This document shows positions 2,410 to 59,743 of a stretch of DNA of 64,000 nucleotides, in pieces (position 1 is the first letter of the stretch; each line of letters begins with the position of its first letter). Origin of the DNA: an uncultured Eubacteriales bacterium (lineage in GTDB: Bacteria; Acidobacteriota; Aminicenantia; Aminicenantales; Aminicenantaceae); assembly GCA_964445575.1 (NCBI GenBank), contig CAYULB010000002.1, positions 158-64,157 on the forward strand, read 5' to 3'. Under the pieces are notes generated by a model that saw only the letters and a program-made list of their open reading frames with translations, did no database searches and had not been told where the DNA came from. Position numbers and translations under genes: made by a program.

Positions 2410-5400
2410 ATGAGAAAAGAAATTTCACTGATTATATGTTTCACACTGTTTTTTTCCTACAGCCTGGGTAGTGAGGTCAGCAGCCTTTCTGAAGTATTTG
2501 CTTTAGGAAAAGGACTGGAGGATAGAGATGGAGACAGTCTTCCGGATCATATCAGATTGTCCCTAATCATTCCTGAGAACAGCTCCTCGTATGAGGTTCT
2601 CTCCGCTTCGGATATAGCTGCCAGAGCTAACCTGGAAAGCCTGGTAGTCAATATGGACCTTCTCTCCAGAAATACCTCTCCTGTTTTTAATAACAAAGAC
2701 CGCACCTGTCCCATCATCATAAGCCACGACCTTTTATGGATTAAAAAAACATTTCCTAGCCTGGATGGAATACCAAAAGAAATCCCGTCTCATCAAGGGC
2801 TGGTCTTTATCTCTCAATCAGAAAACAAAAAAGTTGTGGTGGTGACCGCCGGCTCCCCGGAATCCCTGCTCAAAACCAGCCGGTCTTTCTTCTTGAGATG
2901 GCCTTATCTCTGGGATATTTGGGGAAGAGAACAAGGAGCGACCTATCAAAAGGTAGAAGAAGACATCCGACATTATCTAGAATCCCAACTCATAAAAACC
3001 CCCCAAATCAAGATCACCTCTGCACTTTATGAATTTCCAGATAAAGAGTCATCCTATGAAACCATTAACAGATTGGAATACAACCAAGGCCAGATAAAAA
3101 CCCTTACCGTTGACCTGGTGTTAAAGGATAGGGATGAAGCCAGAAAAACCAATGAGGTGCTAAAAAAATTGGCTGGAAACCATTTAAGAGGGCTGGAAAC
3201 AGAAATTCTTTCTTATCCAGGTTGTTCTGAAATTATCTTTAATCTCAAGTCAAAGGACGATGCTTCCAAATTAATTCTTCCGCGGGTGGGTTTTCCAAAA
3301 AGAATATTGACCCCCTTCTACAAATCACCGGTTCAGATTAAGGTGAAGGAAAATGACTTTGACCTGCTCAATATGCTTTCTCCAAACGGGCTGTACTCTG
3401 ATGAAAATCAGGATAGGATTCCTGATAACACAAATACATCCATAGTCATCCCGGAAAATTACGGCCCAAGAGAAATCGCCGCTCTCGCCTCAAGGTTGAC
3501 TCTCCATACATCTGGAGCCTCTTTTCCTCTGACTTACATGGATTCAGAAATTGAAGAACCTAAGGAACTCCCGAATCCCATTATCATAGGCAAGGAAAAC
3601 ATTCTGTACCAGGATCTGGTCAAAACAGGAAAACTGAGTGCTTCAGAGCTAAAACCGGGGACAGCTGCTGTTCACATCATTCCCCAGGCTTTTAACCAAT
3701 CGCCGGCTGTAGCTGTCTTTGGCTCAGACAAAAAAAGCCTGGCCGGGTTGTTAGAATATCTCTCTCTTACTTTTCCTTACTTTGATGAATACAAACAAGG
3801 AAATCCTGAATTCAAGGACATCTCCCTCTGCCTCGAAGATTTCTTTCACGGGAAAAAGGGCAGTGCAGAATCCTATTTTTTCAATGAATTGAAAAACACT
3901 GTCCAAAAAATCAAACATAAAAAAATAACATCATTTTCAGTTGATTTCTATCTGCCAGAAAAAAATAAGCTTTTTGAAAAATTCATTCACCGGATGTTAA
4001 AAAATGAATTAGATGCCAAAGAGGTAAACACAAAATCCTTTTCTTTTGATGACAGTAACGTCATTTTCAAGATGGAAAAAACCTTTGATTGGGAGGTGGA
4101 GGAAGTTTACAGAATCCTTGATGAAACTCTGGCCAGTGGTCAGTTAAAAGGAGGCCCTCTTCAAATAAACCTAGGAGTCAGTGAGTCCCCCAAAAGCAGG
4201 GAGAAAATAAAAACAACCATTCAGGAAATATTAAAGAAAAATAACATCAATGACTTTCATGTTGATGTTATGTCTTCTTATAAACAAGGGTTTTTCTGGT
4301 TAAAAGAGAAGGTCATTCCTTCTCTTAAATCAAAAAATCCGAACCAGATATTGATCAGATTCTCTCGAACTAACCAGGACTTTACCAACTCAAAAAGATT
4401 TTATCCTGACCCCTCCCGGTGGCTTCAAGAACTGTATCCTATAGACGAAATCATTTCTCAAGAAACAGGAATTCCCCTTGAAAAAATTATTTTTGAAATG
4501 AAAGAAGAACAAAAACCTACCTATGAAATCACAGCCTATGATGAAAATGACCTTGAGGTTTTTAAAGGCCAATTTTCTCCCCGTACTAAAGAAAGCTGCT
4601 ACTTGAAAGTCCTTCCAGAATGGGGAAATGTGATTCGAACTACCGGGTGGCTTCAGATAAAAGAAAAAGAAAAGGTCATTAAAGACGTTCCCATCGCCAG
4701 TGACCTGGAAAAATTCTGGGACTTTTATCAGGAAGAAGTGCTTCCCCCTGTCTATGAATACATTCTTAACAAAACCCATAACAAACCAACGTTCGACAAA
4801 CAGCCCTACTTCAAACAGCTGTTGATTGAGCTGTGGATGAGCGAACCTGATTTTAAACTGGACCTGGACCAAGAAATCATAAGCAGTCTGGAGGCAATTC
4901 ATGATGAAATCTATTTTGATACTCTTGATTTCCTGAGAGGGATCACAGACATTCAAACCGATGAAAAGGACCTTCCTGAAGACTCCTCACGTTATTCAGC
5001 CCCGGGAAATGTCCTCCCCATAATCCATCCTTCAGCAGAAGGAGGAAAAAACAGAGTAAACATCCTGTTTGAAGACAAACTAGCAAAATCTTCCTCTATG
5101 GCCATAAACTGGAGTGATGACTTGGGGAATGAATTCCATGAAAAATTCGAATTCAAGCCCCTTGAAGCAAAAAAAATGAAAACTTCTGTTCTTCTCTATA
5201 ACTTAGAGAAAAACAGGATTGAAAACATCTTTATTGAAACAGAGATTGAAAAAGAGGAACAATATCTAAAACTTATAGAAATCCTCCAGACTTACAGACA
5301 CCTCTGTGAACAGGGAATCATTCTTACTTCATTTAACTTTCCCAATCTCAACAGTTTGACCCTTAAAATCAAACATGGAGACATCTTTAAACAAGAAACC

Positions 5401-6546
5401 ATTCCCGTTTCATGGGAAGATCCAGAAGTCTTCTCTAGAAGCGGGAACGAGTTTAGGGCTGAGTCCATCGTTCCCACAAAAGAAATCATCTCCCCGCAGA
5501 TGTGCCTCGATATTGTGGACAGGCTTTCTGAATTTGACTGCATAAACAGTTATATTGGAGGGGAGTCCTATGAGGGGAGAAAGATCCCTGTCATTGAAAT
5601 CTACTCTCCTATGGACCGGTACACCTCCCTTCCGAGACTGATTACCTTCAAACCCACACTCTACTGCAACGGCCGTCAGCATGCCAACGAAGTCTGCTCC
5701 ACCAATTACATTCTCAAATTTGCAGAACTTGTTGCAAAAAACAAGAAATATAAGTCATTTTTAAAAAAAGTAAATTTCGTTTTTCATCCCATGGAAAATC
5801 CAGACGGCGCAGAACTGGCTTACAAACTGCAAAAATTGACCCCTTTTCACAGCCTTCACGCTGGAAGATACTCTACTCTGGGAATTGACATCGGACATCA
5901 AGTCAGTGCTGACAATCCCATCCTTCCCGAAGCCAAAGTCAGAAAAAATCTATACAGCCGTTGGCTCCCGGATATACACCTCAATCTTCACGGTTATCCC
6001 TCTCATGAGTGGGTCCAGCCCTTTTCAGATTACGCTCCTTTTTTGTTCAGAGATTATTGGATTCCCCGGGGCTGGTTTGTGTATTACAGGTCTCTTTCTC
6101 TCCCCATTTATGAAAAATGGGAAAAAGCCGGAGAAGAGCTGAAAAAATATATCATAGAGGGCATGAATTCTCTGGAAAACATCCGCCTCTCCAATGAATC
6201 CCTTTATGACCGATACCACCGCTGGGCCGCTCGATGGCATCCTCATATGAACAACCTGGAGATCCAAGACGGAGTCAATATTTATTCAAAAAGACAATCT
6301 TCTCGGGAAAGCAAGCTGACGGAGAGGAGAAAAATAACTTTTGTTGAAGAAACTCCTGAACTTATGGACGAAACCGCTCAAGGAAAATGGCTGGACTTCC
6401 TGGTTGAACAGGGACTTGCTTATCTCAAAGCTCATGCTCTCTATCTTTCAGAGAGTTTTTATGCCATATCAAGAATAGAAGAAGAAATAAGAGATAAAAT
6501 CCATATCCAGTTTATACGAAGCCGGCCTGGAAAATCCCATGAATGA
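2410..6546 (+). CDS. Very large (1378 aa) secreted protein with a C-terminal M14-like zinc carboxypeptidase domain
   Basis: GGAGGAGG RBS before the ATG and an N-terminal signal-like segment. Near the C-terminus: NGRQHANEVCST (HxxE), HPMENPDGAE (NPDG) and LNLHGYPSHEW (third His), in the order and spacing expected for M14. The first ~1050 aa had no motif I recognise. Confidence 0.55.
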   Translation: MRKEISLIICFTLFFSYSLGSEVSSLSEVFALGKGLEDRDGDSLPDHIRLSLIIPENSSSYEVLSASDIAARANLESLVVNMDLLSRNTSPVFNNKDRTCPIIISHDLLWIKKTFPSLDGIPKEIPSHQGLVFISQSENKKVVVVTAGSPESLLKTSRSFFLRWPYLWDIWGREQGATYQKVEEDIRHYLESQLIKTPQIKITSALYEFPDKESSYETINRLEYNQGQIKTLTVDLVLKDRDEARKTNEVLKKLAGNHLRGLETEILSYPGCSEIIFNLKSKDDASKLILPRVGFPKRILTPFYKSPVQIKVKENDFDLLNMLSPNGLYSDENQDRIPDNTNTSIVIPENYGPREIAALASRLTLHTSGASFPLTYMDSEIEEPKELPNPIIIGKENILYQDLVKTGKLSASELKPGTAAVHIIPQAFNQSPAVAVFGSDKKSLAGLLEYLSLTFPYFDEYKQGNPEFKDISLCLEDFFHGKKGSAESYFFNELKNTVQKIKHKKITSFSVDFYLPEKNKLFEKFIHRMLKNELDAKEVNTKSFSFDDSNVIFKMEKTFDWEVEEVYRILDETLASGQLKGGPLQINLGVSESPKSREKIKTTIQEILKKNNINDFHVDVMSSYKQGFFWLKEKVIPSLKSKNPNQILIRFSRTNQDFTNSKRFYPDPSRWLQELYPIDEIISQETGIPLEKIIFEMKEEQKPTYEITAYDENDLEVFKGQFSPRTKESCYLKVLPEWGNVIRTTGWLQIKEKEKVIKDVPIASDLEKFWDFYQEEVLPPVYEYILNKTHNKPTFDKQPYFKQLLIELWMSEPDFKLDLDQEIISSLEAIHDEIYFDTLDFLRGITDIQTDEKDLPEDSSRYSAPGNVLPIIHPSAEGGKNRVNILFEDKLAKSSSMAINWSDDLGNEFHEKFEFKPLEAKKMKTSVLLYNLEKNRIENIFIETEIEKEEQYLKLIEILQTYRHLCEQGIILTSFNFPNLNSLTLKIKHGDIFKQETIPVSWEDPEVFSRSGNEFRAESIVPTKEIISPQMCLDIVDRLSEFDCINSYIGGESYEGRKIPVIEIYSPMDRYTSLPRLITFKPTLYCNGRQHANEVCSTNYILKFAELVAKNKKYKSFLKKVNFVFHPMENPDGAELAYKLQKLTPFHSLHAGRYSTLGIDIGHQVSADNPILPEAKVRKNLYSRWLPDIHLNLHGYPSHEWVQPFSDYAPFLFRDYWIPRGWFVYYRSLSLPIYEKWEKAGEELKKYIIEGMNSLENIRLSNESLYDRYHRWAARWHPHMNNLEIQDGVNIYSKRQSSRESKLTERRKITFVEETPELMDETAQGKWLDFLVEQGLAYLKAHALYLSESFYAISRIEEEIRDKIHIQFIRSRPGKSHE

Positions 6547-6636: not shown

Positions 6637-7992
6637 ATGAACCTTCTTTTGATTGACGAGGGCCTATCATTATACGACAAAGTTAAAAATTCCCCTCATA
6701 TTGATAAATGCGAAGTCTACTTTTCTGATAATATAGAATCCATTCTCAAACAAATAAAAGATTATAATATTGACGTGGTGATGGCAGATATAGACCGGTA
6801 CAAAAACAAAGCTCTTTCACTGCTGAAAGAACTTATTAAATTTGATTCATTGATCGATATCATACTCATTGGAAAAGCAAAATCTTCTGAAAATGTTATG
6901 GATGTCATAAAAAAAGGAGCTACCGATTATATTGAAAAACCAGTGAATCAAAATATCCTTGATAAGGCCCTGTGCGCTTTAAATAAAAAGAGAAATTTAA
7001 GAAAAGAAACTTTTATTCTTGAGAAAAGACTGGAAGAAAAATATTCTTTTAAAGGAATCATTGGAAAAAGTCCTTATATGTTAGAAATTTTTTCTCTTAT
7101 TGAAAAAATTTCTAAATTTTTCTCCAGCATTCTGATAACCGGGGAGACCGGTACAGGAAAAGAACTGGTGGCTCACGCTATCCATGACCTGAGCACCCGA
7201 AGCCATAAAAAGCTTGTCATATGCGACTGTGTTTCCATCCCTGAAAACCTTTTTGAGTCAGAACTCTTCGGCTATAAAAAAGGAGCGTTTACCGGAGCCA
7301 ACACCAATAAGCAGGGGCTTTTTGAGGCCGCCCATGAAAGCATTATTTTTTTAGATGAAATCGGAGAAATACCCTTGTCCGTACAAGCAAAACTACTGAG
7401 AGTCCTGGAGAGCCATCAATTCAGGCCGCTGGGGTCCAATGAGACCAAAGAAGTGGATGTTAAAGTGATTGCATCAACTAACAGGAATCTATCTGAATGC
7501 ATAACGAACAGGACTTTTCGGGAAGACCTTTTCCACAGACTCAACAAGGTAGAAGTCCATCTTTCCCCTTTAAGGGAAAGAAAAGAAGACATCCCGCTTT
7601 TAGTCCGGCATCTTCTGGAAAACCTGAGCGAGAAAGTAGACAAGAATCTAAAAGGAATCTCCATGAAAGTCCAAAAGCTGTTTACAAAATATCACTGGCC
7701 TGGAAATGTCAGAGAGCTGGAGAATGTTCTTGAAAGAGCTGCTTTAGTGACTAAAAAAGAGTTTATAGATATAAATGACCTCCCAAAATATCTGCAGAAA
7801 AGCTCTACCTTAAAGCAAAGCGCATCCCTTATCCAGAGAGAAAACCTCTGTTCTCTGGAAGATTTAGAAAAAGACTATATAATCTATCTATTGAACCAAA
7901 CAGATCACAATATAAAAAAAACTGCGGACATTTTAAATATATCCCGTACTACCCTGTACAGTAAATTAGAAAAATACCACATCCACCATTGA
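6637..7992 (+). CDS. Sigma-54-dependent Fis-family response regulator (NtrC-type enhancer-binding protein)
   Basis: Receiver domain (LLLIDEG, VVMADID, GATDYIEKP). AAA+ core with GETGTGKELVAHAIH, ESELFGYKKGAFTGA (GAFTGA sigma-54 contact loop) and FLDEIGE. C-terminal Fis-type HTH KKTADILNISRTTLYSKLEKY. Confidence 0.9.
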   Translation: MNLLLIDEGLSLYDKVKNSPHIDKCEVYFSDNIESILKQIKDYNIDVVMADIDRYKNKALSLLKELIKFDSLIDIILIGKAKSSENVMDVIKKGATDYIEKPVNQNILDKALCALNKKRNLRKETFILEKRLEEKYSFKGIIGKSPYMLEIFSLIEKISKFFSSILITGETGTGKELVAHAIHDLSTRSHKKLVICDCVSIPENLFESELFGYKKGAFTGANTNKQGLFEAAHESIIFLDEIGEIPLSVQAKLLRVLESHQFRPLGSNETKEVDVKVIASTNRNLSECITNRTFREDLFHRLNKVEVHLSPLRERKEDIPLLVRHLLENLSEKVDKNLKGISMKVQKLFTKYHWPGNVRELENVLERAALVTKKEFIDINDLPKYLQKSSTLKQSASLIQRENLCSLEDLEKDYIIYLLNQTDHNIKKTADILNISRTTLYSKLEKYHIHH

Positions 7993-8200
7993 ACTGATTT
8001 ACCTCACTTATTCATCAGAAGGCTAGATCTTCAATGTCGCTTCACCCACACCTCAATTTTATGAAGCTGCACTTTTTTATATAATCTTTTTCTTCAATGT
8101 CTTGCCTTTATCGCTTTCCTTGCCCCTTTCACACTAAATAAACAAGATAGACCAAATAAACTAACCCGGATTATTATTTCAACCTATAATCCACCTGAAA

Positions 8201-8217: not shown

Positions 8218-8277
8218 ATATTCTGTTGATCATTACAACTCATTTATTTTGAACAAGTTACCTGCCACCTGCCAATT

Positions 8278-8300
8278 AAGTGTTCATTATATGAACACTT
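8278..8300. promoter_or_regulatory. Palindrome AAGTGTTCA-N5-TGAACACTT, candidate upstream activator site (proximal)
   Basis: Perfect 9-bp arms with the same TGTTCA/TGAACA core as 8201..8217. Centre is about 86 bp upstream of the -24 GG. An extra half-site TTGAACA sits at 8249..8255. Confidence 0.45.
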
Positions 8301-8373
8301 AATCTGATACTTATATTCCGAATGAATTTCTATATCTCTTTTATTATAAGCAGCTTACAACTCTTTGGGCTCA

Positions 8374-25322: not shown

Positions 25323-26054
25323 TTATCTTAAGTGACTCTGTTTGAGCTTTTTGATTTCATTCGGGGTAAGATGACGCCATTTTCCTCTATCTAATTTCCC
25401 TAATTTCAAATCAGCAAATTGGATCCGCTTCAATCTTACCACCTGACAGCCTACAGCTTGAAACATTCTCCTTATCACTCTTTTTCTTCCTTCATGGATT
25501 TCTACTCTTAAAAGACAAGAATCCGGTTCCTTTCTGATTAATTCAATCTGATCCGGGAAAGTTTTTCGGTTATCTAAGAACACTCCTTCTGACAGTGTTT
25601 TTAAGTGCGGGCTTTTCAAATGTCCTTTTATCCAAACTTCATAGACTTTTCTGATATTATACCGGGGATGCATGAGATGATGGGCAAATTCTCCGTCATT
25701 GGTTAAAATAAGAAGTCCCTCGCTGTTTAAATCCAGCCTTCCCACCGGGAAAAGACGCACACCTAGATCCGGGAGAATCTCTTTTACAGTGGGGCGGTTG
25801 AAAGGGTCGTCCAGAGTGACCAAATATCCGGGGGGTTTATGGAGAATTAAATAACATTTTTTCTCAGACCTGACTTCTTTCCTATCCACTTCGACTTTGT
25901 CTTCCTCAATATTGATTTTTGTTCCCAGCCGGGTCTCTACTCTTCCATTGACCTTGACTCTTCCCTGCTCAATCAGCTGATCAGCCTTCCTCCTTGAGGT
26001 CACACCTGCTCTGGCTATAAATTTATTCAAACGCAATTTAACCTGACCTATCAC
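25323..26054 (-). CDS. rluB: Pseudouridine synthase, RsuA/RluB family
   Basis: S4 domain RLNKFIARAGVTSRRKADQLI and catalytic GRLDLNSEGLLILTNDG. The start is ambiguous: GTG 26054 or TTG 26036. The first six ORF-track codons are repeat-element sequence. Confidence 0.85.
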   Translation of the reverse strand: MIGQVKLRLNKFIARAGVTSRRKADQLIEQGRVKVNGRVETRLGTKINIEEDKVEVDRKEVRSEKKCYLILHKPPGYLVTLDDPFNRPTVKEILPDLGVRLFPVGRLDLNSEGLLILTNDGEFAHHLMHPRYNIRKVYEVWIKGHLKSPHLKTLSEGVFLDNRKTFPDQIELIRKEPDSCLLRVEIHEGRKRVIRRMFQAVGCQVVRLKRIQFADLKLGKLDRGKWRHLTPNEIKKLKQSHLR

Positions 26055-26125
26055 TTGGGATACAGCGATGTTTTCATTAATATTCTCATTTAAGCGGTAA
26101 GCAAGACCTTTTCAAATAAAGTTGA
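26042..26125 (-). repeat. Truncated copy (promoter-proximal end only) of the intergenic repeat family
   Basis: In sense orientation it reads ...TGAAAAGGTCTTGCTTACCGCTTAAATGAGAATATTAATGAAAACATCGCTGTATCCCAAGTGATAGGTCAGG + TTAA. It is collinear with 59620..59693, including the identical 11-mer AAAACATCGCT and the end ATAGGTCAGG. Confidence 0.6.
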
Positions 26126-26713: not shown

Positions 26714-26818
26714 ATTCATTCCCTTTGAATCGATTTGCTCAATGCTTTTGGTTATTTTACTCAAACACTAAAAAAATAGCAATGGAATGCAGATAAAGGA
26801 TAAGAAAAATAACCTGAA

Positions 26819-28066
26819 CTATTCATAACGAAGGGATACCATGGGGTCCACTCTAGCTGCTTTCTGAGCTGGAAATATGCCAAAGAAGAGTCCCACTGAT
26901 ACAGACACGAAAAGCCCCAGACCTACGGACCACAGAGTGACTGTTGCCGGCAGAGGGGTGGTGACTCTTACCAGCAAAGCAACTGCAAATCCTATGAGAA
27001 GGCCGGCGGTCCCTCCGACTCCAGTTAATATTATGGATTCTATAAGAAATTGGTTCTGGATATCAGAAGAGCGCGCCCCAATGGCTTTGCGTATCCCTAT
27101 TTCTCTGGTCCTTTCTTTGACCGTTACCAGCATAATATTCATGACTCCAATTCCCCCTACCAACAAACCGATAGAGGAAATCACAATCATCACAAGATAA
27201 GCGGCGCCAGTTAACTGGTTATAAAGGTCAAGGATAGTTCCCTGCCCATAGATAGCAAAGTCATTGGGTTTGCCTACGGGAACTTTTCTTCTCTGGCGGA
27301 GGACATTGATGATCTGGTCTTTAGCTTCTTCATAAAATTCATGCTTTTGAGGAACAGCTACAATCTCAATACTGCTCAAATCATAGGGAAAGTGCTTCAT
27401 GGCCGTGGTCAAGGGAATCGCTGCAATATTATCCCTGCTCTGCCCAAACATAGCCCCCCTTTTTTCCATCTGCCCTATGACTGTGAATCTGTGTGCTCCG
27501 ATCCTGATCTCTTTTCCTATAGGATCTGTATGGGGAAACAGAGCTTCTTTAACATCAGCCCCTAGAACACACACCTTGGTGCGGTGAATCATATCAGATT
27601 CTGAAATGAAACGTCCTCTCTCAGGAAGATAAACAGAAATGACACTGGGAAAGCTTTCATTCATGCCGATAATGATGGTATCTGTGGATTCTGTCCCCCG
27701 ATATTTAATGGGAATGCTCTCGAACAAGGATACCGTGAGGTCAACACCCACTGCTTTGACCAAAGGACATTCCCTTTTTATAGCCATGGCATCCTCAAAG
27801 GTCAGGTCTTTTCTCTGCCTTCCTTCTTCGGACATATTCCCCACATTGATCCCGGGTTCATACTTGCTGATCATGATTACGTCTGGTCCTACAGATTCCA
27901 GCTCACTGAGAAAAGATTTGTTCAGCCCCTGTACCACTGAAACCATAGCTATCACAGTCATGACTCCAATCATGATTCCCAGAAGAGTAAGAAATGACCT
28001 GAGTTTATGGGAAATGATAGATTCCAGGGACATCTGAAACACGTCTTTTAGAATTCCTATTTTCAT
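26819..28066 (-). CDS. ABC transporter permease, MacB/FtsX type
   Basis: N-terminal TM helix, MacB-like periplasmic core, C-terminal FtsX four-helix module (RTREIGIRKAIGA). Confidence 0.85.
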   Translation of the reverse strand: MKIGILKDVFQMSLESIISHKLRSFLTLLGIMIGVMTVIAMVSVVQGLNKSFLSELESVGPDVIMISKYEPGINVGNMSEEGRQRKDLTFEDAMAIKRECPLVKAVGVDLTVSLFESIPIKYRGTESTDTIIIGMNESFPSVISVYLPERGRFISESDMIHRTKVCVLGADVKEALFPHTDPIGKEIRIGAHRFTVIGQMEKRGAMFGQSRDNIAAIPLTTAMKHFPYDLSSIEIVAVPQKHEFYEEAKDQIINVLRQRRKVPVGKPNDFAIYGQGTILDLYNQLTGAAYLVMIVISSIGLLVGGIGVMNIMLVTVKERTREIGIRKAIGARSSDIQNQFLIESIILTGVGGTAGLLIGFAVALLVRVTTPLPATVTLWSVGLGLFVSVSVGLFFGIFPAQKAARVDPMVSLRYE

Positions 28067-29298
28067 AGACTCGACCTCAATGCTTCTATGGGATCCTGCC
28101 TGGATGCCTTATTTGCTGGATAAATGCCGAAAAAAATTCCTATGGATGCAGATACCACCACAGCCACTACAATAGACACAGGGTCTACACGGGAAGGAAG
28201 CGCGGTGGCCGAAGAGATGATTTTGGCCAAGACAAAACCGAGAATGATCCCAATACTTCCTCCAATAGTGGATAAAGTCGCAGCCTCAATAAGGAACTGA
28301 AAAAGAATGTCAATTCTTCTTGCTCCCACGGCCATTCTAATTCCTATTTCATTGATCCTTTCTGTTACCGAGACCAGCATGATATTCATGACCACGATTC
28401 CCCCTACTATGAGAGCTAAAGAAGAGATAGCAATCATGGCAAAATAAATCCCTGTGGTGGCGCTTTTATATATCTGAATGAACTGGTCTGAGGTCTGAAA
28501 TGAAAAGTCATCCGGCTTGTCAAAGGGAATATGTCTTTTAGTCCTTAAAATAGTCCTCACTTCTTCCTGGGCCAGAATCATTTGTTCCTGAGATTGAGTG
28601 TGTATATTTATGTTGATGGTCCTTCGTGATCCGTAAGCTTTATGGAATGTGGTTATGGGAATACGGACATAATTGTCCTGACTCATTCCCAATATCTTTC
28701 CCTTTGCTTTGGCAGCTCCAATGACCCTGAAGTGATGATTTCCAACTTTGATCCATTTCCCAAGAGGATTGACGTAGGGGAACAGGTTTTCTGAAACATC
28801 TGCCCCTATCACACACACTCTGTGTGAATGGTCTTCCATTTCCTTCAGAATGTGGTGTCCGTATTCAAGCTCTTCCACGCTTCCGATCAAATGATCCACA
28901 TAAGTAGCGCCTCTTACTGAGACATCCTTTAAAGACCGGCCTTTGTATTTGACTGTACGGCTGGTGCTCAGCGTGGCTCCAACCAGTTCACAGTATTTAC
29001 ATTGATCTCGGATGAGCCTCATATCATCCAGAGTCAGGTCCTTTCTTTTGAGCTGTTCTCGATAATCCTGAAGAGAGGTCCCCACAAACGAAAACTTCGA
29101 TACAGAAAAGTCATTAGCTCCATAAAAAGACATCTTTTCATAAACATAATCATTAAGACCCTGAATGATCGAAACCACAGCAATAATGGTGAGAACCCCG
29201 ATTATGATCCCGAGGAGGGTAAGAAATGTCCTTAATTTATTCCCCCACAGAGAACTGATCGACATGGAAATGGATTCACTGATATGCACTCTTGCCAT
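28063..29298 (-). CDS. ABC transporter permease, MacB/FtsX type (paralog of the downstream gene)
   Basis: Same architecture (RINEIGIRMAVGA). 4-nt overlap with 26819..28066. Confidence 0.85.
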   Translation of the reverse strand: MARVHISESISMSISSLWGNKLRTFLTLLGIIIGVLTIIAVVSIIQGLNDYVYEKMSFYGANDFSVSKFSFVGTSLQDYREQLKRKDLTLDDMRLIRDQCKYCELVGATLSTSRTVKYKGRSLKDVSVRGATYVDHLIGSVEELEYGHHILKEMEDHSHRVCVIGADVSENLFPYVNPLGKWIKVGNHHFRVIGAAKAKGKILGMSQDNYVRIPITTFHKAYGSRRTININIHTQSQEQMILAQEEVRTILRTKRHIPFDKPDDFSFQTSDQFIQIYKSATTGIYFAMIAISSLALIVGGIVVMNIMLVSVTERINEIGIRMAVGARRIDILFQFLIEAATLSTIGGSIGIILGFVLAKIISSATALPSRVDPVSIVVAVVVSASIGIFFGIYPANKASRQDPIEALRSSL

Positions 29299-31290: not shown

Positions 31291-31967
31291 TAGGTTTCAT
31301 CCACATTGACCGCATCCAAAATTCTCTGGGTCAGTTTAAAATGACTTTTAGCCACTTTTTTTAAAACATCAGCGCCGTAAAGTCTAACCAGTTCCACTCC
31401 CGCCTGCTCAGACCTGGGAGAAGAACCTTTGGGAAGCTCGACCTTAAATTCACTTGACAACAAATACAGCCTTCTCAAAAACTCGCTTCTTGCCAGTATA
31501 GAGGCTGCAGCCACAGCCATATCTTCCTCTGCCTTTGTCTTCTGCTCCAGTTCAATGTTTCTCCCTTTTTTCATCAATGCATTGAGGACAAATCTTTGAT
31601 CTCCAAACTGATCAGTGACGGCAAGAGTGCAGGGAACTTTTTCCAGGATATTCTCAATAACTCGGGAATGAGCCCAGGCAAGAATACGGTTGAGATTTCT
31701 TAGCTTTAAATAAAGTTCATTGTACCGTTCCGGTCCAATGGTGACGATGGAGTGAGTGTATCCGTCTCTAATCTGCTTGGATAATTCTCTGGTTCGATTA
31801 TCAGAGACCCTTTTGCTGTCTTTCACTCCCAGTTCCGTAAGAACTTTTTCCTGTCCTTCTGGCAGAAAAACCCCGGCCGCAACCAGCGGGCCAAAATAAT
31901 CGCCTTTTCCAGACTCATCAGTCCCGATATGCCCTCTTTCAGACTCAAACAGACTCGATTGCCTCAT
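31290..31967 (-). CDS. rnhC: Type 2 ribonuclease H with an RNase HIII-type active-site motif, no N-terminal domain
   Basis: GTDESGKGDYFGPLVAAGV begins only ~15 aa from the start. Start taken at ATG 31967 (RBS AAGGA); the ORF-track TTG is at 31970. 1-nt TAATG overlap with alaX. Confidence 0.7.
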   Translation of the reverse strand: MRQSSLFESERGHIGTDESGKGDYFGPLVAAGVFLPEGQEKVLTELGVKDSKRVSDNRTRELSKQIRDGYTHSIVTIGPERYNELYLKLRNLNRILAWAHSRVIENILEKVPCTLAVTDQFGDQRFVLNALMKKGRNIELEQKTKAEEDMAVAAASILARSEFLRRLYLLSSEFKVELPKGSSPRSEQAGVELVRLYGADVLKKVAKSHFKLTQRILDAVNVDET

Positions 31968-32018
31968 CAAGCTTATCCTTGGTTCATGAATGACCCAGGT
32001 TATTGATTTCTATTTTAA

Positions 32019-32272
32019 CCTGACCTATTCATAAAAAAATGGCGATATTTTCATTATCGCTCTATTTTCAGCAATGTACAAGAATTTTTCAAGAACAATG
32101 TCTTAAACATTTTTCCTGTTTGAATTTTTTATTTTAATCGCCATTTTTTTACCATTAAGGCGAGCCGATCTCACGGCATCTGCTTCGTTGCAGGGCATTC
32201 GCAGTGAAAGACCACGACTTCATGCCCTGGCGCCTCGCATCTGCCGCAATTTCGACTCGTGAATAATTCAGG
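32019..32272 (-). repeat. Full-length copy 1 of a MITE-like intergenic repeat (sense orientation on the minus strand)
   Basis: Reverse complement aligns over its whole length with 59432..59689, roughly 80-85% identity by eye. Ends CCTGACCTATTCAT / GTGAATAATTCAGG. TTAA at 32015..32018 and 32273..32276. Confidence 0.8.
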
Positions 32273-33566
32273 TTAATAAATTTCTACTTTTTGCTTCTTT
32301 AATCAAATCATCCCTGAATTTGGGATGAGCGATTTCAATCAGAGATTTAGTTCTCTCATGTAAGTTTTTTCCATGAAGGTAGGCGACTCCGTACTCAGTG
32401 ACCACATACTCCACATCAGCTCTGGTTGTCACCACCCCAGAGCCTTTTTTAAGATAAGGAACAATCCGGGAAAACTCTTCCTTTTTAGCGGTAGAAGGAA
32501 GGGCGATGATGGGTTTTCCTTTTTTAGAGTGGGCTGCTCCCCGAATAAAATCAACCTGTCCTCCAAAACCACTGTAAATGTACTTTCCGATTGAATCAGA
32601 ACACACTTGTCCTGTAATATCGACTTCAATAGCTGAATTGATGGCCACCATTTGGTCATTTCTAGATATGATAAAAGGATCATTGGTGTAATCTGTGGGA
32701 TGGGCTTCAAAAACAGGATTGTTATTGGCAAATTCATACAGTTTTTTCGATCCAAGAATAAACGTTAAAATGATCTTATTGGGATGATAGGTCTTTTTTG
32801 CCCCTGTGATGACTCCGGATTCTATGGCTTCCATGACTCCATCTGAAACCATCTCTGTATGACTTCCCAGGTCTCCCCGGTTCTTTAAAGCTGAAAGAAC
32901 CGCGTCTGGTATCCCGCCAATTCCCAACTGCAGAGTGGACCCATCCTCAATCAAATCTCCAATATACGCCCCGATCTTCCTTTCCACTTCACTAAACGGT
33001 TTTTTCTGAAGCTCTGGGAGAGGTTCGGAAACTTCCACAATCTTATCTATTTTAGACACGTGGATAAAAGAATCCCCTAGAACCCGAGGCATCTGGTCAT
33101 TTACCTGTGCTATCACCACATCTGCAGTCTCGGCTGCGGACTTGGAACAAAGGACTTCCACTCCATAACTCATAAAACCGTGTTCATCAGGGGGAGACAG
33201 ATGAAGCAGAGCCACGTCAATGGGCATCTGTCTGGAATAAAACAATTCAGGTATCTGATGAAGAAATATAGGAATATAATCCGCTCTCCCATCATTAATG
33301 GCTTTTCTGTCGGCAGGACCCACAAATAAAGAGTTGTGTCTGAAATGCCCTTCCATTTCAGGCTTAGAAAAAGGGTCATCTCCCAATAAAAGGACATGCA
33401 CCAATTCAACAGTTTTCAATTCATCCTTTCTTTCCGCCAGAGCATTCGCCAGTACATAGGGAGTGGCTGCGTTTCCACTAATATAGACTCTTTGCTTGCT
33501 CTTAATTTCTGAAACAGCTTCTTCCGCACTTACCAGCTTTTTTTTGTACTCATCAACCCAGCTCAT
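32268..33566 (-). CDS. Acetyl-CoA hydrolase/transferase family protein (4-hydroxybutyrate / short-chain acyl-CoA:acetate CoA-transferase-like)
   Basis: ~430 aa. Family-typical SGNAATP, LQLGIGGIPDAV and GFGGQVDFIRGA. Start set at ATG 33566 (GGAGG 6 nt upstream); the ORF track gives 33572. Confidence 0.85.
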   Translation of the reverse strand: MSWVDEYKKKLVSAEEAVSEIKSKQRVYISGNAATPYVLANALAERKDELKTVELVHVLLLGDDPFSKPEMEGHFRHNSLFVGPADRKAINDGRADYIPIFLHQIPELFYSRQMPIDVALLHLSPPDEHGFMSYGVEVLCSKSAAETADVVIAQVNDQMPRVLGDSFIHVSKIDKIVEVSEPLPELQKKPFSEVERKIGAYIGDLIEDGSTLQLGIGGIPDAVLSALKNRGDLGSHTEMVSDGVMEAIESGVITGAKKTYHPNKIILTFILGSKKLYEFANNNPVFEAHPTDYTNDPFIISRNDQMVAINSAIEVDITGQVCSDSIGKYIYSGFGGQVDFIRGAAHSKKGKPIIALPSTAKKEEFSRIVPYLKKGSGVVTTRADVEYVVTEYGVAYLHGKNLHERTKSLIEIAHPKFRDDLIKEAKSRNLLT

Positions 33567-45663: not shown

Positions 45664-45814
45664 CCTGGCATATTCACAAGTCTAGGTGGCGAGCTTAATG
45701 AAATTCAGCCACACCTGAATTTCATCTTGGTTAGGTGCTTTTTTGGAAAAATCTTGCACATCACAGGAAAAATACCAATAATAAAAACATCTCTTTTTTT
45801 GTGAATAGGTCAGA
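45664..45814 (+). repeat. Short variant copy of the intergenic repeat family (different internal hairpin)
   Basis: Ends CCTGGCATATTCAC / GTGAATAGGTCAGA match the family TIRs. The right half is collinear with 59620..59689. The core is replaced by ATGAAATTCAG-CCACAC-CTGAATTTCAT. Confidence 0.65.
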
Positions 45815-45820
45815 GAAATC

Positions 45821-46897
45821 ATGAATGCTGATAAAATAAAGGTTTCAGCTCCGGGCAGATTATGTCTGCTGGGAGAACATCAAGATTATTTCGGCCTTCC
45901 CATAATAGCAGCGGCCATAAACCTGAGAATCTCTGTCACTGCGAGTAAAACCACTAACCAGAGGATCGAACTGGACCTTCCTGATATCAGAGAAAAAGAA
46001 GAATTCCCTTTAAGAAAAAAACTGAATTACCGCAAAGAGCGGGATTACCTGAAAAGTGCTGTGAATATCCTGTTGAGAAAAAACATTTATCCTCACTCAG
46101 GTTGGAAAGCCCGGGTCAGGGGCACTATTCCCATCAATTCAGGCACAGCCAGTTCCTCTGCTCTGGTGGTAGCCTGGATCGGTTTTCTGTTGAAAGCTGC
46201 CGGAGACCAAAGAGCCTCTCGTCCTGATGAAATCGCGGAATTGGCCTTTCAGTCTGAGGTTGCGGAATTTAATGAACCTGGGGGGAAAATGGACCATTAT
46301 TCCTCAGCCTTGGGTCAGGTCATCTCCATCCACTTTGGAGAAAAACTCAAAACAAATCAATTTAAAAACCCTTTAAAAAAATTTGTACTGGCTGACTCTC
46401 TTATAAGAAAAAATACCACTGGAACCCTGGGGTTTATTAAGTCCCATGTTATGAAAGCCCTGTCAAAAATAAGAAAGAAAAACAGCAATTTTGTGCTTAA
46501 GTCTCCCTTGTCTTCTTTTCTAGAAAAAGAGATCGAAAACCTCCCGCAACCTGAAAGAAGACTTTTAAAAGGGACTCTTATGACTAGAGACATCACTGCA
46601 CAGGGAGAAGCTCTGTTTAAAGCAAGAGAATTTGATCACAAGAAATTCGGAAGGCTTCTTTCCCAGCAGCAGGAAGTGATTAAAAATTACTTGAAGCTCT
46701 CATCTCCAAAGCTCAACCACATGATTGAGGAAGCTATCCGTGCAGGAGCCCTAGGCGCCAAAATCAACGGCTCAGGAGAAGGAGGCTGCATCTTTGCTTA
46801 TACTCCAAAGAATGCAGAACAGGTAGCCAAAAAACTGGAAAAATTAGGTTGTAAAACTTATATTGTCCATGTAGACAAAGGAATAATAATCCAGTAA
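45821..46897 (+). CDS. GHMP-family sugar/acid kinase (galactokinase-like)
   Basis: APGRLCLLGEHQDYFG (galactokinase-type signature) and PINSGTASSSALVVA (GHMP motif II). Confidence 0.75.
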   Translation: MNADKIKVSAPGRLCLLGEHQDYFGLPIIAAAINLRISVTASKTTNQRIELDLPDIREKEEFPLRKKLNYRKERDYLKSAVNILLRKNIYPHSGWKARVRGTIPINSGTASSSALVVAWIGFLLKAAGDQRASRPDEIAELAFQSEVAEFNEPGGKMDHYSSALGQVISIHFGEKLKTNQFKNPLKKFVLADSLIRKNTTGTLGFIKSHVMKALSKIRKKNSNFVLKSPLSSFLEKEIENLPQPERRLLKGTLMTRDITAQGEALFKAREFDHKKFGRLLSQQQEVIKNYLKLSSPKLNHMIEEAIRAGALGAKINGSGEGGCIFAYTPKNAEQVAKKLEKLGCKTYIVHVDKGIIIQ

Positions 46898-59354: not shown

Positions 59355-59431
59355 TGATAAATGTGACAGTTAAGGTGATTGAATAACCTACCTTTATTTA
59401 GTTATGGTTTTGTGCTAGGATTGTTATTTAA

Positions 59432-59689
59432 TCTGGATTATTCACGAGTTGAGATTGGAGATTGCTGCAGATGCGAGGCACAGGGCATGAAGTCGTGGTC
59501 CTTCACTGCGAATGCCCTGTAACGAAGCAGATGCAGTGAGATCGGCTCGCCTGGAAGGTAAAAAAATGGCGATTAAGATTAAAAATATAAACAAGAAAAA
59601 TATTCAAGACATTGTTCCTGAAAGAATCTTGCATATAGCTGAAAATAAATTATTAAAAAACATCGCTATTTTTTTATGAATAGGTCAGG
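59432..59689 (+). repeat. Full-length copy 2 of the MITE-like intergenic repeat (sense on the plus strand)
   Basis: See 32019..32272. Ends TCTGGATTATTCAC / ATGAATAGGTCAGG. Flanks TTAA (59428..59431) and CTAA (59690..59693). Contains a GAGATTG tandem duplication at 59451..59464. Confidence 0.8.
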
Positions 59690-59743
59690 CTAATATTAAT
59701 CATTTAACAAAGAATATTTGTGGTTAAATACAGGAGGAACAAT

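Follow-up and report, generated by a model that had tools for sequence, protein, structure and literature searches.

A probable MITE family carrying a strand-biased hairpin in Aminicenantes

A multi-copy element family

The intergenic segment at positions 32019–32272 of the 64-kb stretch of DNA analysed here (the window) is very probably a full-length non-autonomous DNA transposon (a MITE) belonging to a multi-copy family of the Aminicenantes (Acidobacteriota). This reading, first put forward in the original prediction, best explains the observations as a whole, namely dispersed copies with sharp ends, terminal repeats, a 4-bp target duplication and sites which are empty in relatives. The family is previously undescribed, and we found no mention of MITEs in Aminicenantes in the papers searched. 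The element is of an ordinary kind; the family stands out in one respect, a conserved hairpin for which good folding is confined to a single strand.

The 254-bp copy at 32019–32272 (hereinafter c1) has its sense strand, the one ending in TGAATAGGTCAGG, on the minus strand, and thus shares the direction of both flanking genes, which encode a CoA-transferase and RNase HII. The second full-length copy in the window (c2; 59432–59689, plus strand, 258 bp) lies between the genes for FabH and a DUF885 protein. The two copies are reverse complements of each other, as the original prediction had it, and the identity that had been estimated by eye at roughly 80–85% was measured at 84% over 262–269 nt with flanks (blastn, E = 2e-70); the same pairing was recovered by nhmmer with an E-value of about 2e-93, and by a repeat search, in which two arms of 167 nt and 40 nt show 89% and 90% identity, respectively. 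When c1 is compared with more than 60 other loci, to which it is 74–88% identical, the edges of the matches are abrupt, falling at 32015–32019 and 32272–32280. The imperfect terminal inverted repeats predicted for c1 were likewise recovered, the left one being CCTGAATTATTCA (32260–32272, minus strand) and the right one TGAATAGGTCAGG (32019–32031, minus strand); with the flanking TTAA counted in, they form an inverted repeat of 17 nt with 88% complementarity. TTAA indeed brackets c1, at 32015–32018 on the right-end side and at 32273–32276 on the left-end side, the latter within the last codons of the CoA-transferase gene, and c2 has the TTAA (59428–59431) and CTAA (59690–59693) flanks ascribed to it. 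Neither coding capacity nor a shared reading frame is apparent: c1 contains no open reading frame of 80 or more amino acids, and indels between c1 and c2 disrupt any frame.

A scan of species-representative genomes with the 20-nt end motif TTTTTTTRTGAATAGGTCAG located at least 107 loci in at least 16 species-level assemblies, so that the family extends well beyond the window; among the matches listed, a single MAG contains up to 19 exact copies of the 20-mer. Nearly all of the listed assemblies with the motif are labelled as Candidatus Aminicenantes or Acidobacteriota MAGs. For many matches the nearest contig end is about 115 nt away, indicating that the repeat breaks assemblies and that many Aminicenantes MAG contigs end about 115 nt into the element; a Logan contig from the same organism as the window (L188) starts inside c2. 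The window itself probably derives from this group, given that its proteins have homologues assigned to Aminicenantes. The repeat also occurs under labels other than Aminicenantes, including a Methanosarcinales archaeon (CAZAIK01; locus L038, whose contig of 2.9 kb includes a full copy sharing 84% identity with c1), a member of the Bacteroidales (CAZVKJ01; locus L087) and several assemblies labelled 'uncultured Eubacteriales'. These records are likely to be mis-binned contigs or to carry generic labels, and the repeat could accordingly be used as a lineage marker exposing mis-binned or mislabelled contigs.

Anatomy of the element and its size variants

The main size of the element is 251–254 bp, with deletion and modular variants ranging from 22 to about 420 bp. 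The family ends, CCTGNNNTATTCA on the left and TGAATANNNCAGG on the right, are kept in the 41 aligned copies and are sharply defined, with TGAATAGGTCAGG as the terminus of the right-end strand. Read together with the YTAR target, the right end provides each of the three reading frames with a stop codon (TAG, TGA and TAA/TAG). A full copy appears to be built of four modules, in the order left end, GC-rich hairpin (about 100 nt), AT-rich module and right end. In c1, the GC-rich module (32161–32259, minus strand) is a long imperfect hairpin stable on the sense strand only, and the AT-rich module (32032–32151, minus strand) is closed by a perfect 15-bp stem, TAAAAAAATGGCGAT/ATCGCCATTTTTTTA (32032–32046 with 32137–32151), which in the family has the form A7-TGGCGAT/ATCGCCA-T7. 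Pairwise identity among copies is 0.89 for the left end, 0.85 for the GC hairpin and 0.69, the lowest of the element, for the AT loop. At its inner border, the AT module has a degenerate inverted counterpart of the element's right 28 nt. The AT module therefore looks like an older long-ended element, and the GC hairpin module may have been joined onto it. Among the small variants are forms of 37–55 bp and a 50-bp perfect palindrome composed of two right ends (L051).

The window contains four copies in 64 kb, in addition to fragments. The original prediction had placed two shorter relatives at 45664–45814 and 26042–26125. Both are significant in nhmmer searches (45741–45813, E = 5e-9; 26038–26115, E = 2e-8) and share only the last ~75 nt of the element, and the second of them is better placed at 26038–26115. 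The first (c3; 45664–45814, plus strand) had been taken for a truncated copy, which it is not: since it has both termini, CCTGGCATATTCA and TGAATAGGTCAG, enclosing an interior unlike that of c1 and c2 with a different internal hairpin (ATGAAATTCAG..CTGAATTTCAT), it represents a short subfamily, and similar interiors are found at five other loci (L010, L013, L052, L091 and L097). Its right end lies 7 nt ahead of the ATG of a GHMP-kinase gene. The other (c4; 26038–26115, minus strand) is a partial copy consisting of the right ~75 nt and TTAA, and abuts the start of a pseudouridine-synthase gene.

The 17-nt terminal motif TGAATAGGTCAGGTTAA occurs eight times in the window with up to three mismatches, against 0.33 occurrences expected, and none of 100 shuffled sequences reaches this number. 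One solo right-end-like motif, TGAATAGTTCAGGTTAT (26809–26825, minus strand; two mismatches to the 17-mer), has no element body beside it and overlaps the stop codon of a gene for a MacB/FtsX-type permease. A weaker end-like motif, TGAATAAGTGAGGTAAA (7998–8014, minus strand), is found just past a sigma-54 activator gene, and the sequence adjoining it gave no convincing alignment with c3. A 23-bp piece made up of terminal repeats only, CCTGGGTCATTCATGAACCAAGG (31977–31999, minus strand), is flanked by ATAA on both sides (31973–31976 and 32000–32003) and is missing from the related locus L109; it can be compared with a 22-bp terminal-repeat-only form, CCTGGATTATTCATAGGTCAGG, which in L013 has CTAT on either side.

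Target duplication and empty sites

The base following GGTCAG is G in 104 of the 109 copies, and the next four bases conform to YTAR in 63 of 109. For 60 of 114 copies, the left end CCTGNNNTATTCA could be located no more than 400 nt away. The flanking 4-mers are identical at register 4 in 25 of 55 end pairs, compared with two or three pairs at every other register. End pairs with YTAR on both flanks are identical in 19 of 24 cases, as counted from the flank table, and duplications of sequences other than YTAR occur as well (for example, TAAA, TAGA, ATGA, AGAG and TTCA). Thus, a duplication does recur at copy boundaries, and it is exactly 4 bp long and mostly YTAR.

Empty sites, which the original prediction had suggested looking for, were found in relatives for both full copies. 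The order of the CoA-transferase and RNase HII genes is kept in about 30 metagenome loci, in which the spacer is usually 3–42 nt. In one of these (L109; 90% and 87% amino-acid identity to the window for the two proteins), the c1 site is empty, with an 18-nt spacer and a single CTAA where the window has TTAA–element–TTAA. The sequence at this site is ...AATTTACTAAGATAAAAATATGATAG-ATG in L109 and ...AATTTATTAA-element-TTAAAATAG... in the window, from which it follows that the insertion struck the CoA-transferase gene within its final codons, at a YTAR site. The stop codon of this gene (TGA, 32268–32270, minus strand) lies inside the left end of c1, CCTGAATT, in agreement with the overlap noted originally, and the protein ends in LLT* in the window, by way of the element's TGA, versus LLR* in L109. 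The insertion of c1 has therefore displaced the old stop codon, and a codon supplied by the element now ends the gene, an instance of a gene end altered by the element. At the c2 site, the spacer between the FabH and DUF885 genes is 389 nt in the window versus 108 nt in three relatives of 78–80% identity (L189, L190 and L191), in which the sequence is conserved right up to the insertion point; one of them (L191, MAG JAWLEN01) has at least seven family copies elsewhere in the MAG. Both full copies are insertions without counterpart in close relatives, and transposition in this uncultured lineage is recent, with occupied sites differing among relatives at about 80–90% protein identity.

Two further observations concern insertion sites. 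Locus L108, which is as close to the window as L109, has a different, decayed variant of the element just past the CoA-transferase stop codon (3800–3900), with a short tandem repeat, (GAAATGT)n, and only the right ~75 nt recognisable (nhmmer, E = 3.7e-10). At three loci (L073, 6626–6904; L034, ~5660–5920; L102, ~3150–3310), elements are arranged head to tail, 4–5 nt apart (GGTCAGG-AGAG-TCTGAGTTATTCA...), as tandem dimers with a common 4-nt flank, which suggests either insertion beside an existing copy or unequal recombination.

A hairpin favoured on the sense strand

In each of the 41 full copies, the sense strand forms a more stable fold than the antisense strand, with mean energies of −84.0 and −66.9 kcal/mol, respectively, and the difference comes wholly from the GC module (−52.4 versus −36.9). 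For the consensus, the contrast is greater still (−64.1 versus −21.6 kcal/mol overall; −45.2 versus −9.8 for the GC module). Across the 57 consensus pairs of the alignment, 1976 cells are Watson–Crick, 291 are G·U and 15 are A·C, and G·U outnumbers A·C at 31 pairs, with the opposite at 5. Compensatory double changes affect 13 pairs, against 6.8 ± 1.4 in shuffled alignments (none of 500 reaches 13) and 2–7 in slid controls; one subfamily (L064, L039) has swapped CAGGG/CCCTG for GCGGC/GCCGC. Taken together, strand-biased folding, the G·U excess and covariation are the mark of a structure preserved in RNA, or at any rate in a single strand, and point to an RNA-level structure with a candidate function. 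As the copies have common ancestors, six fixed G·U pairs, and with them part of the G·U excess, go back to a small number of inherited changes and do not amount to 41 independent ones; strand-biased deamination could also have added to the excess.

Two other explanations of the hairpin region were rejected. A small open reading frame antisense to the hairpin loses its frame between c1 and c2, which differ by indels of −1 and +7, and the substitutions track base pairing, not codons. An intrinsic terminator would call for a U-run, which does not follow the GC hairpin, and a terminator-like hairpin at 32042–32060 is specific to c1.

Orientation relative to neighbouring genes

Among copies picked by the exact right-end motif, the right end points toward a gene start in 80 cases versus a gene end in 28. 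Between tandem gene pairs, 35 copies are in the sense and 13 in the antisense orientation (p = 0.002), and spacers with an element are divergent in 25 cases versus convergent in 7, against a background of 89 versus 92. On the left side there is no bias, the upstream gene reading into the element in 46 cases and away from it in 40. Copies picked otherwise show a 15:8 ratio, a trend only. On these counts, the sense orientation beside gene starts appears to be favoured.

A promoter within the element could in principle underlie such a bias, and c1 does have a sigma-70-like motif, TTGTAC-17-GATAAT (32053–32081, minus strand), identified by consensus match alone. In one subfamily only, a motif of this kind is positionally conserved, as TTGCAT-17-AATAAT. 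However, a scan for consensus sigma-70 promoters returned matches at chance level, and the orientation bias is similar with (32:10) and without (45:18) the TTGnnn-17-nATAAT motif (Fisher's test, 0.66). For these two reasons we claim no promoter for the family; in the one subfamily, a sigma-70 promoter is a weak possibility. A sigma-54 promoter suggested by eye was rejected, the GG-N9-GC of c3 having the wrong spacing and not being conserved.

The strand ending in TGAATAGGTCAGG probably preserves the hairpin as an RNA structure. Copies would be kept preferentially when their TGAATAGGTCAGG end faces a gene start, which we take to mean that the element is transcribed with or into the neighbouring gene, the sense orientation being tolerated or even useful. 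Possible roles include a 5′-UTR or processing hairpin or, in one subfamily, a promoter, as in Correia and ERIC elements. A more far-reaching reading, which we hold to be less probable than not, is that the GC module is a transposon-borne functional RNA, with the ~100-nt covarying, sense-only hairpin serving as a mobile module for RNA processing, stability or insulation. On this reading, an RNA module would have been seeded beside dozens of housekeeping genes per genome, would be retained in an orientation-dependent manner and would shape expression across the Aminicenantes.

The hairpin and the strand asymmetry may instead be baggage from the parent insertion sequence (IS), devoid of any host function, with the MITE having kept the left end of that IS; we regard this as possible, if somewhat doubtful. 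Subterminal sequences of a parent IS are commonly retained in MITEs, the hairpin comes immediately after the left end, and covariation between subfamilies could stem from evolving master elements; selection for the structure might have acted in the parent IS instead of the host. One conceivable variant is that the hairpin was the leader of the transposase mRNA, hiding the ribosome-binding site from read-through transcripts. No parent IS is at hand for comparison, and inheritance from it leaves unexplained both the right end facing gene starts and the persistence of short right-end fragments next to start codons (c3, c4 and the decayed variant of L108).

It is improbable that the GC module constitutes a small RNA gene family in its own right, with transposon ends on its flanks by chance and, as a domesticated element, with a trans-acting RNA as its main role. 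The covarying structure on the sense strand and the better conservation of the hairpin than of the AT loop (0.85 versus 0.69) would suit such a role. However, a search of the window against Rfam yielded no match at the gathering threshold and nothing credible at permissive thresholds (the best match, IS128, scored 20.6 bits against a threshold of 80), the hairpin has neither an obvious promoter of its own upstream nor a terminator after it, the module is wholly missing from many copies, and copies diverge from one another by 12–25%, more than would be expected of a trans-acting RNA whose target is fixed.

Far less likely still, the repeats could be copies of a host regulatory region, for instance a promoter or 5′ leader common to a regulon; they would then be immobile, and would have arisen by duplication or been conserved where they stand. 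In the window, all four copies have the same orientation with respect to the gene downstream, their motif end lies 5–50 nt from its start codon, and c1, c3 and c4 have the TTGnnn-17-nATAAT motif in common. The sites that are empty in close relatives contradict immobility, and the exact 4-bp duplications, non-YTAR ones included, are at odds with it; moreover, the downstream genes are unrelated housekeeping genes (encoding RNase HII, DUF885 protein, GHMP kinase and pseudouridine synthase), 28 of 108 copies face gene ends, and assemblies break at the copies.

Parent element and transposase

As a MITE, the element would be mobilised in trans by a DDE transposase making 4-bp staggered cuts at YTAR. 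The window was predicted to be free of transposase genes, and a Pfam search of 50 of its 51 open reading frames (all except the last, end-truncated one) accordingly identified housekeeping families only. A full-length IS with the same termini, proposed as a source of the family, was found neither in the window nor in about 1.4 Mb of related DNA. Pairs of ends 0.6–3.5 kb apart enclose ordinary genes, for a transporter, a decarboxylase, a DsbA-like protein and a lipoprotein, rather than a parent IS; phmmer searches with InsH of Escherichia coli IS5 produced no match in about 1.4 Mb of fragmented related MAG DNA; and plasmid and phage collections contained no match. A match of the left end to a viral contig was rejected as a chance match within a coding region.

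The mobilising transposase would be IS5-like or IS701-like. Preference for YTAR is typical of IS5-group elements, and the IS5-like assignment is drawn from the 4-bp YTAR duplication. Elements of the IS701 family have duplications of exactly 4 bp (PMC2266710). Their published end consensus, ---YACT-Y--YR, which is not representative of the whole family (PMC2266710), is matched by eye at four of seven specified positions by the right end of the element and at three of seven by the left end. MITEs derived from IS5-family or IS701-family elements resemble the present family in their 4-bp target duplication, and the fit of its ends to the IS701 consensus is partial, at 3–4 of 7 positions.

A REP/REPIN or an IS200/IS605-derived palindrome, which a tyrosine (HUH) transposase would mobilise in single-stranded form, could explain why folding is strand-asymmetric and includes many G·T pairs but is highly unlikely, considering that IS200/IS605 and REP/RAYT elements are not known to have terminal inverted repeats or target duplications, both of which are present and regular here, and that the window contains no RAYT or TnpA gene.

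Relationship to known MITEs

The closest parallels are the Correia elements, MITEs of Neisseria, which are likewise small, non-coding and multi-copy, have terminal inverted repeats, are located mostly just upstream of genes and are polymorphic in their sites between related genomes. Correia elements duplicate TA and have Neisseria-type 26-bp ends, whereas the Aminicenantes element duplicates 4 bp, mostly YTAR, and has unrelated ends; there is no sequence similarity, and the hosts belong to different phyla. Furthermore, the Aminicenantes element is larger (254 bp) and contains a separate internal hairpin of ~100 nt, so that its pairing is not confined to the ends. The ERIC/IRU elements of Enterobacteriaceae and Yersinia are comparable in being imperfect palindromes in transcribed intergenic regions, and an RNA-level structure is plausible here as well; however, ERIC elements are about 127 bp long, are unrelated in sequence and differ in target duplication and ends. 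Given that duplication, ends and host all differ, the Aminicenantes family belongs to neither Correia nor ERIC.

Effects of MITEs on gene expression are known, through promoters and through processing by RNase III and RNase E (PMC10969869). Some Correia subtypes have sigma-70-like promoters, and transcribed copies fold into hairpins cleaved by RNase III; the mRNA-level effect of ERIC/IRU via RNase E depends on placement in the transcript (PMC10969869). With promoter-bearing and RNA-processing MITEs being well known in other bacteria, the present family extends a known theme. The parts that merit follow-up are the covarying hairpin confined to the sense strand and the orientation bias, and the approximately 100 or more diverged copies constitute a natural data set for testing RNA-level selection on a MITE-borne hairpin.

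Additional observations

Next to c4 (26038–26054) and c3 (45802–45824), the downstream start codon lies only 1–7 nt past the element or its TTAA, so that any ribosome-binding sequence would need to be supplied by the end of the element itself, TAGGTCAGG; several predicted gene starts at other loci are 3–9 nt from an element end. Downstream of c1, the start of the RNase HII gene is most likely the ATG at 31965–31967 (minus strand; ATGAGGCAATCG) rather than the TTG at 31970 given in the list of open reading frames, as the same start is present in the orthologues of L109 and L110. A 126-nt direct repeat with 73% identity (27075–27200 and 28322–28447) falls within two adjacent MacB_PCD/FtsX permease genes (26819–28066 and 28063–29298), which are tandem paralogues; the repeat has no relation to the MITE. 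Finally, the 430-nt spacer between the sigma-54 activator gene (6637–7992) and a DUF5658 gene contains a near-perfect palindrome, TTAAGTGTTCATTATATGAACACTTAA (8277–8304), which may be an operator site.
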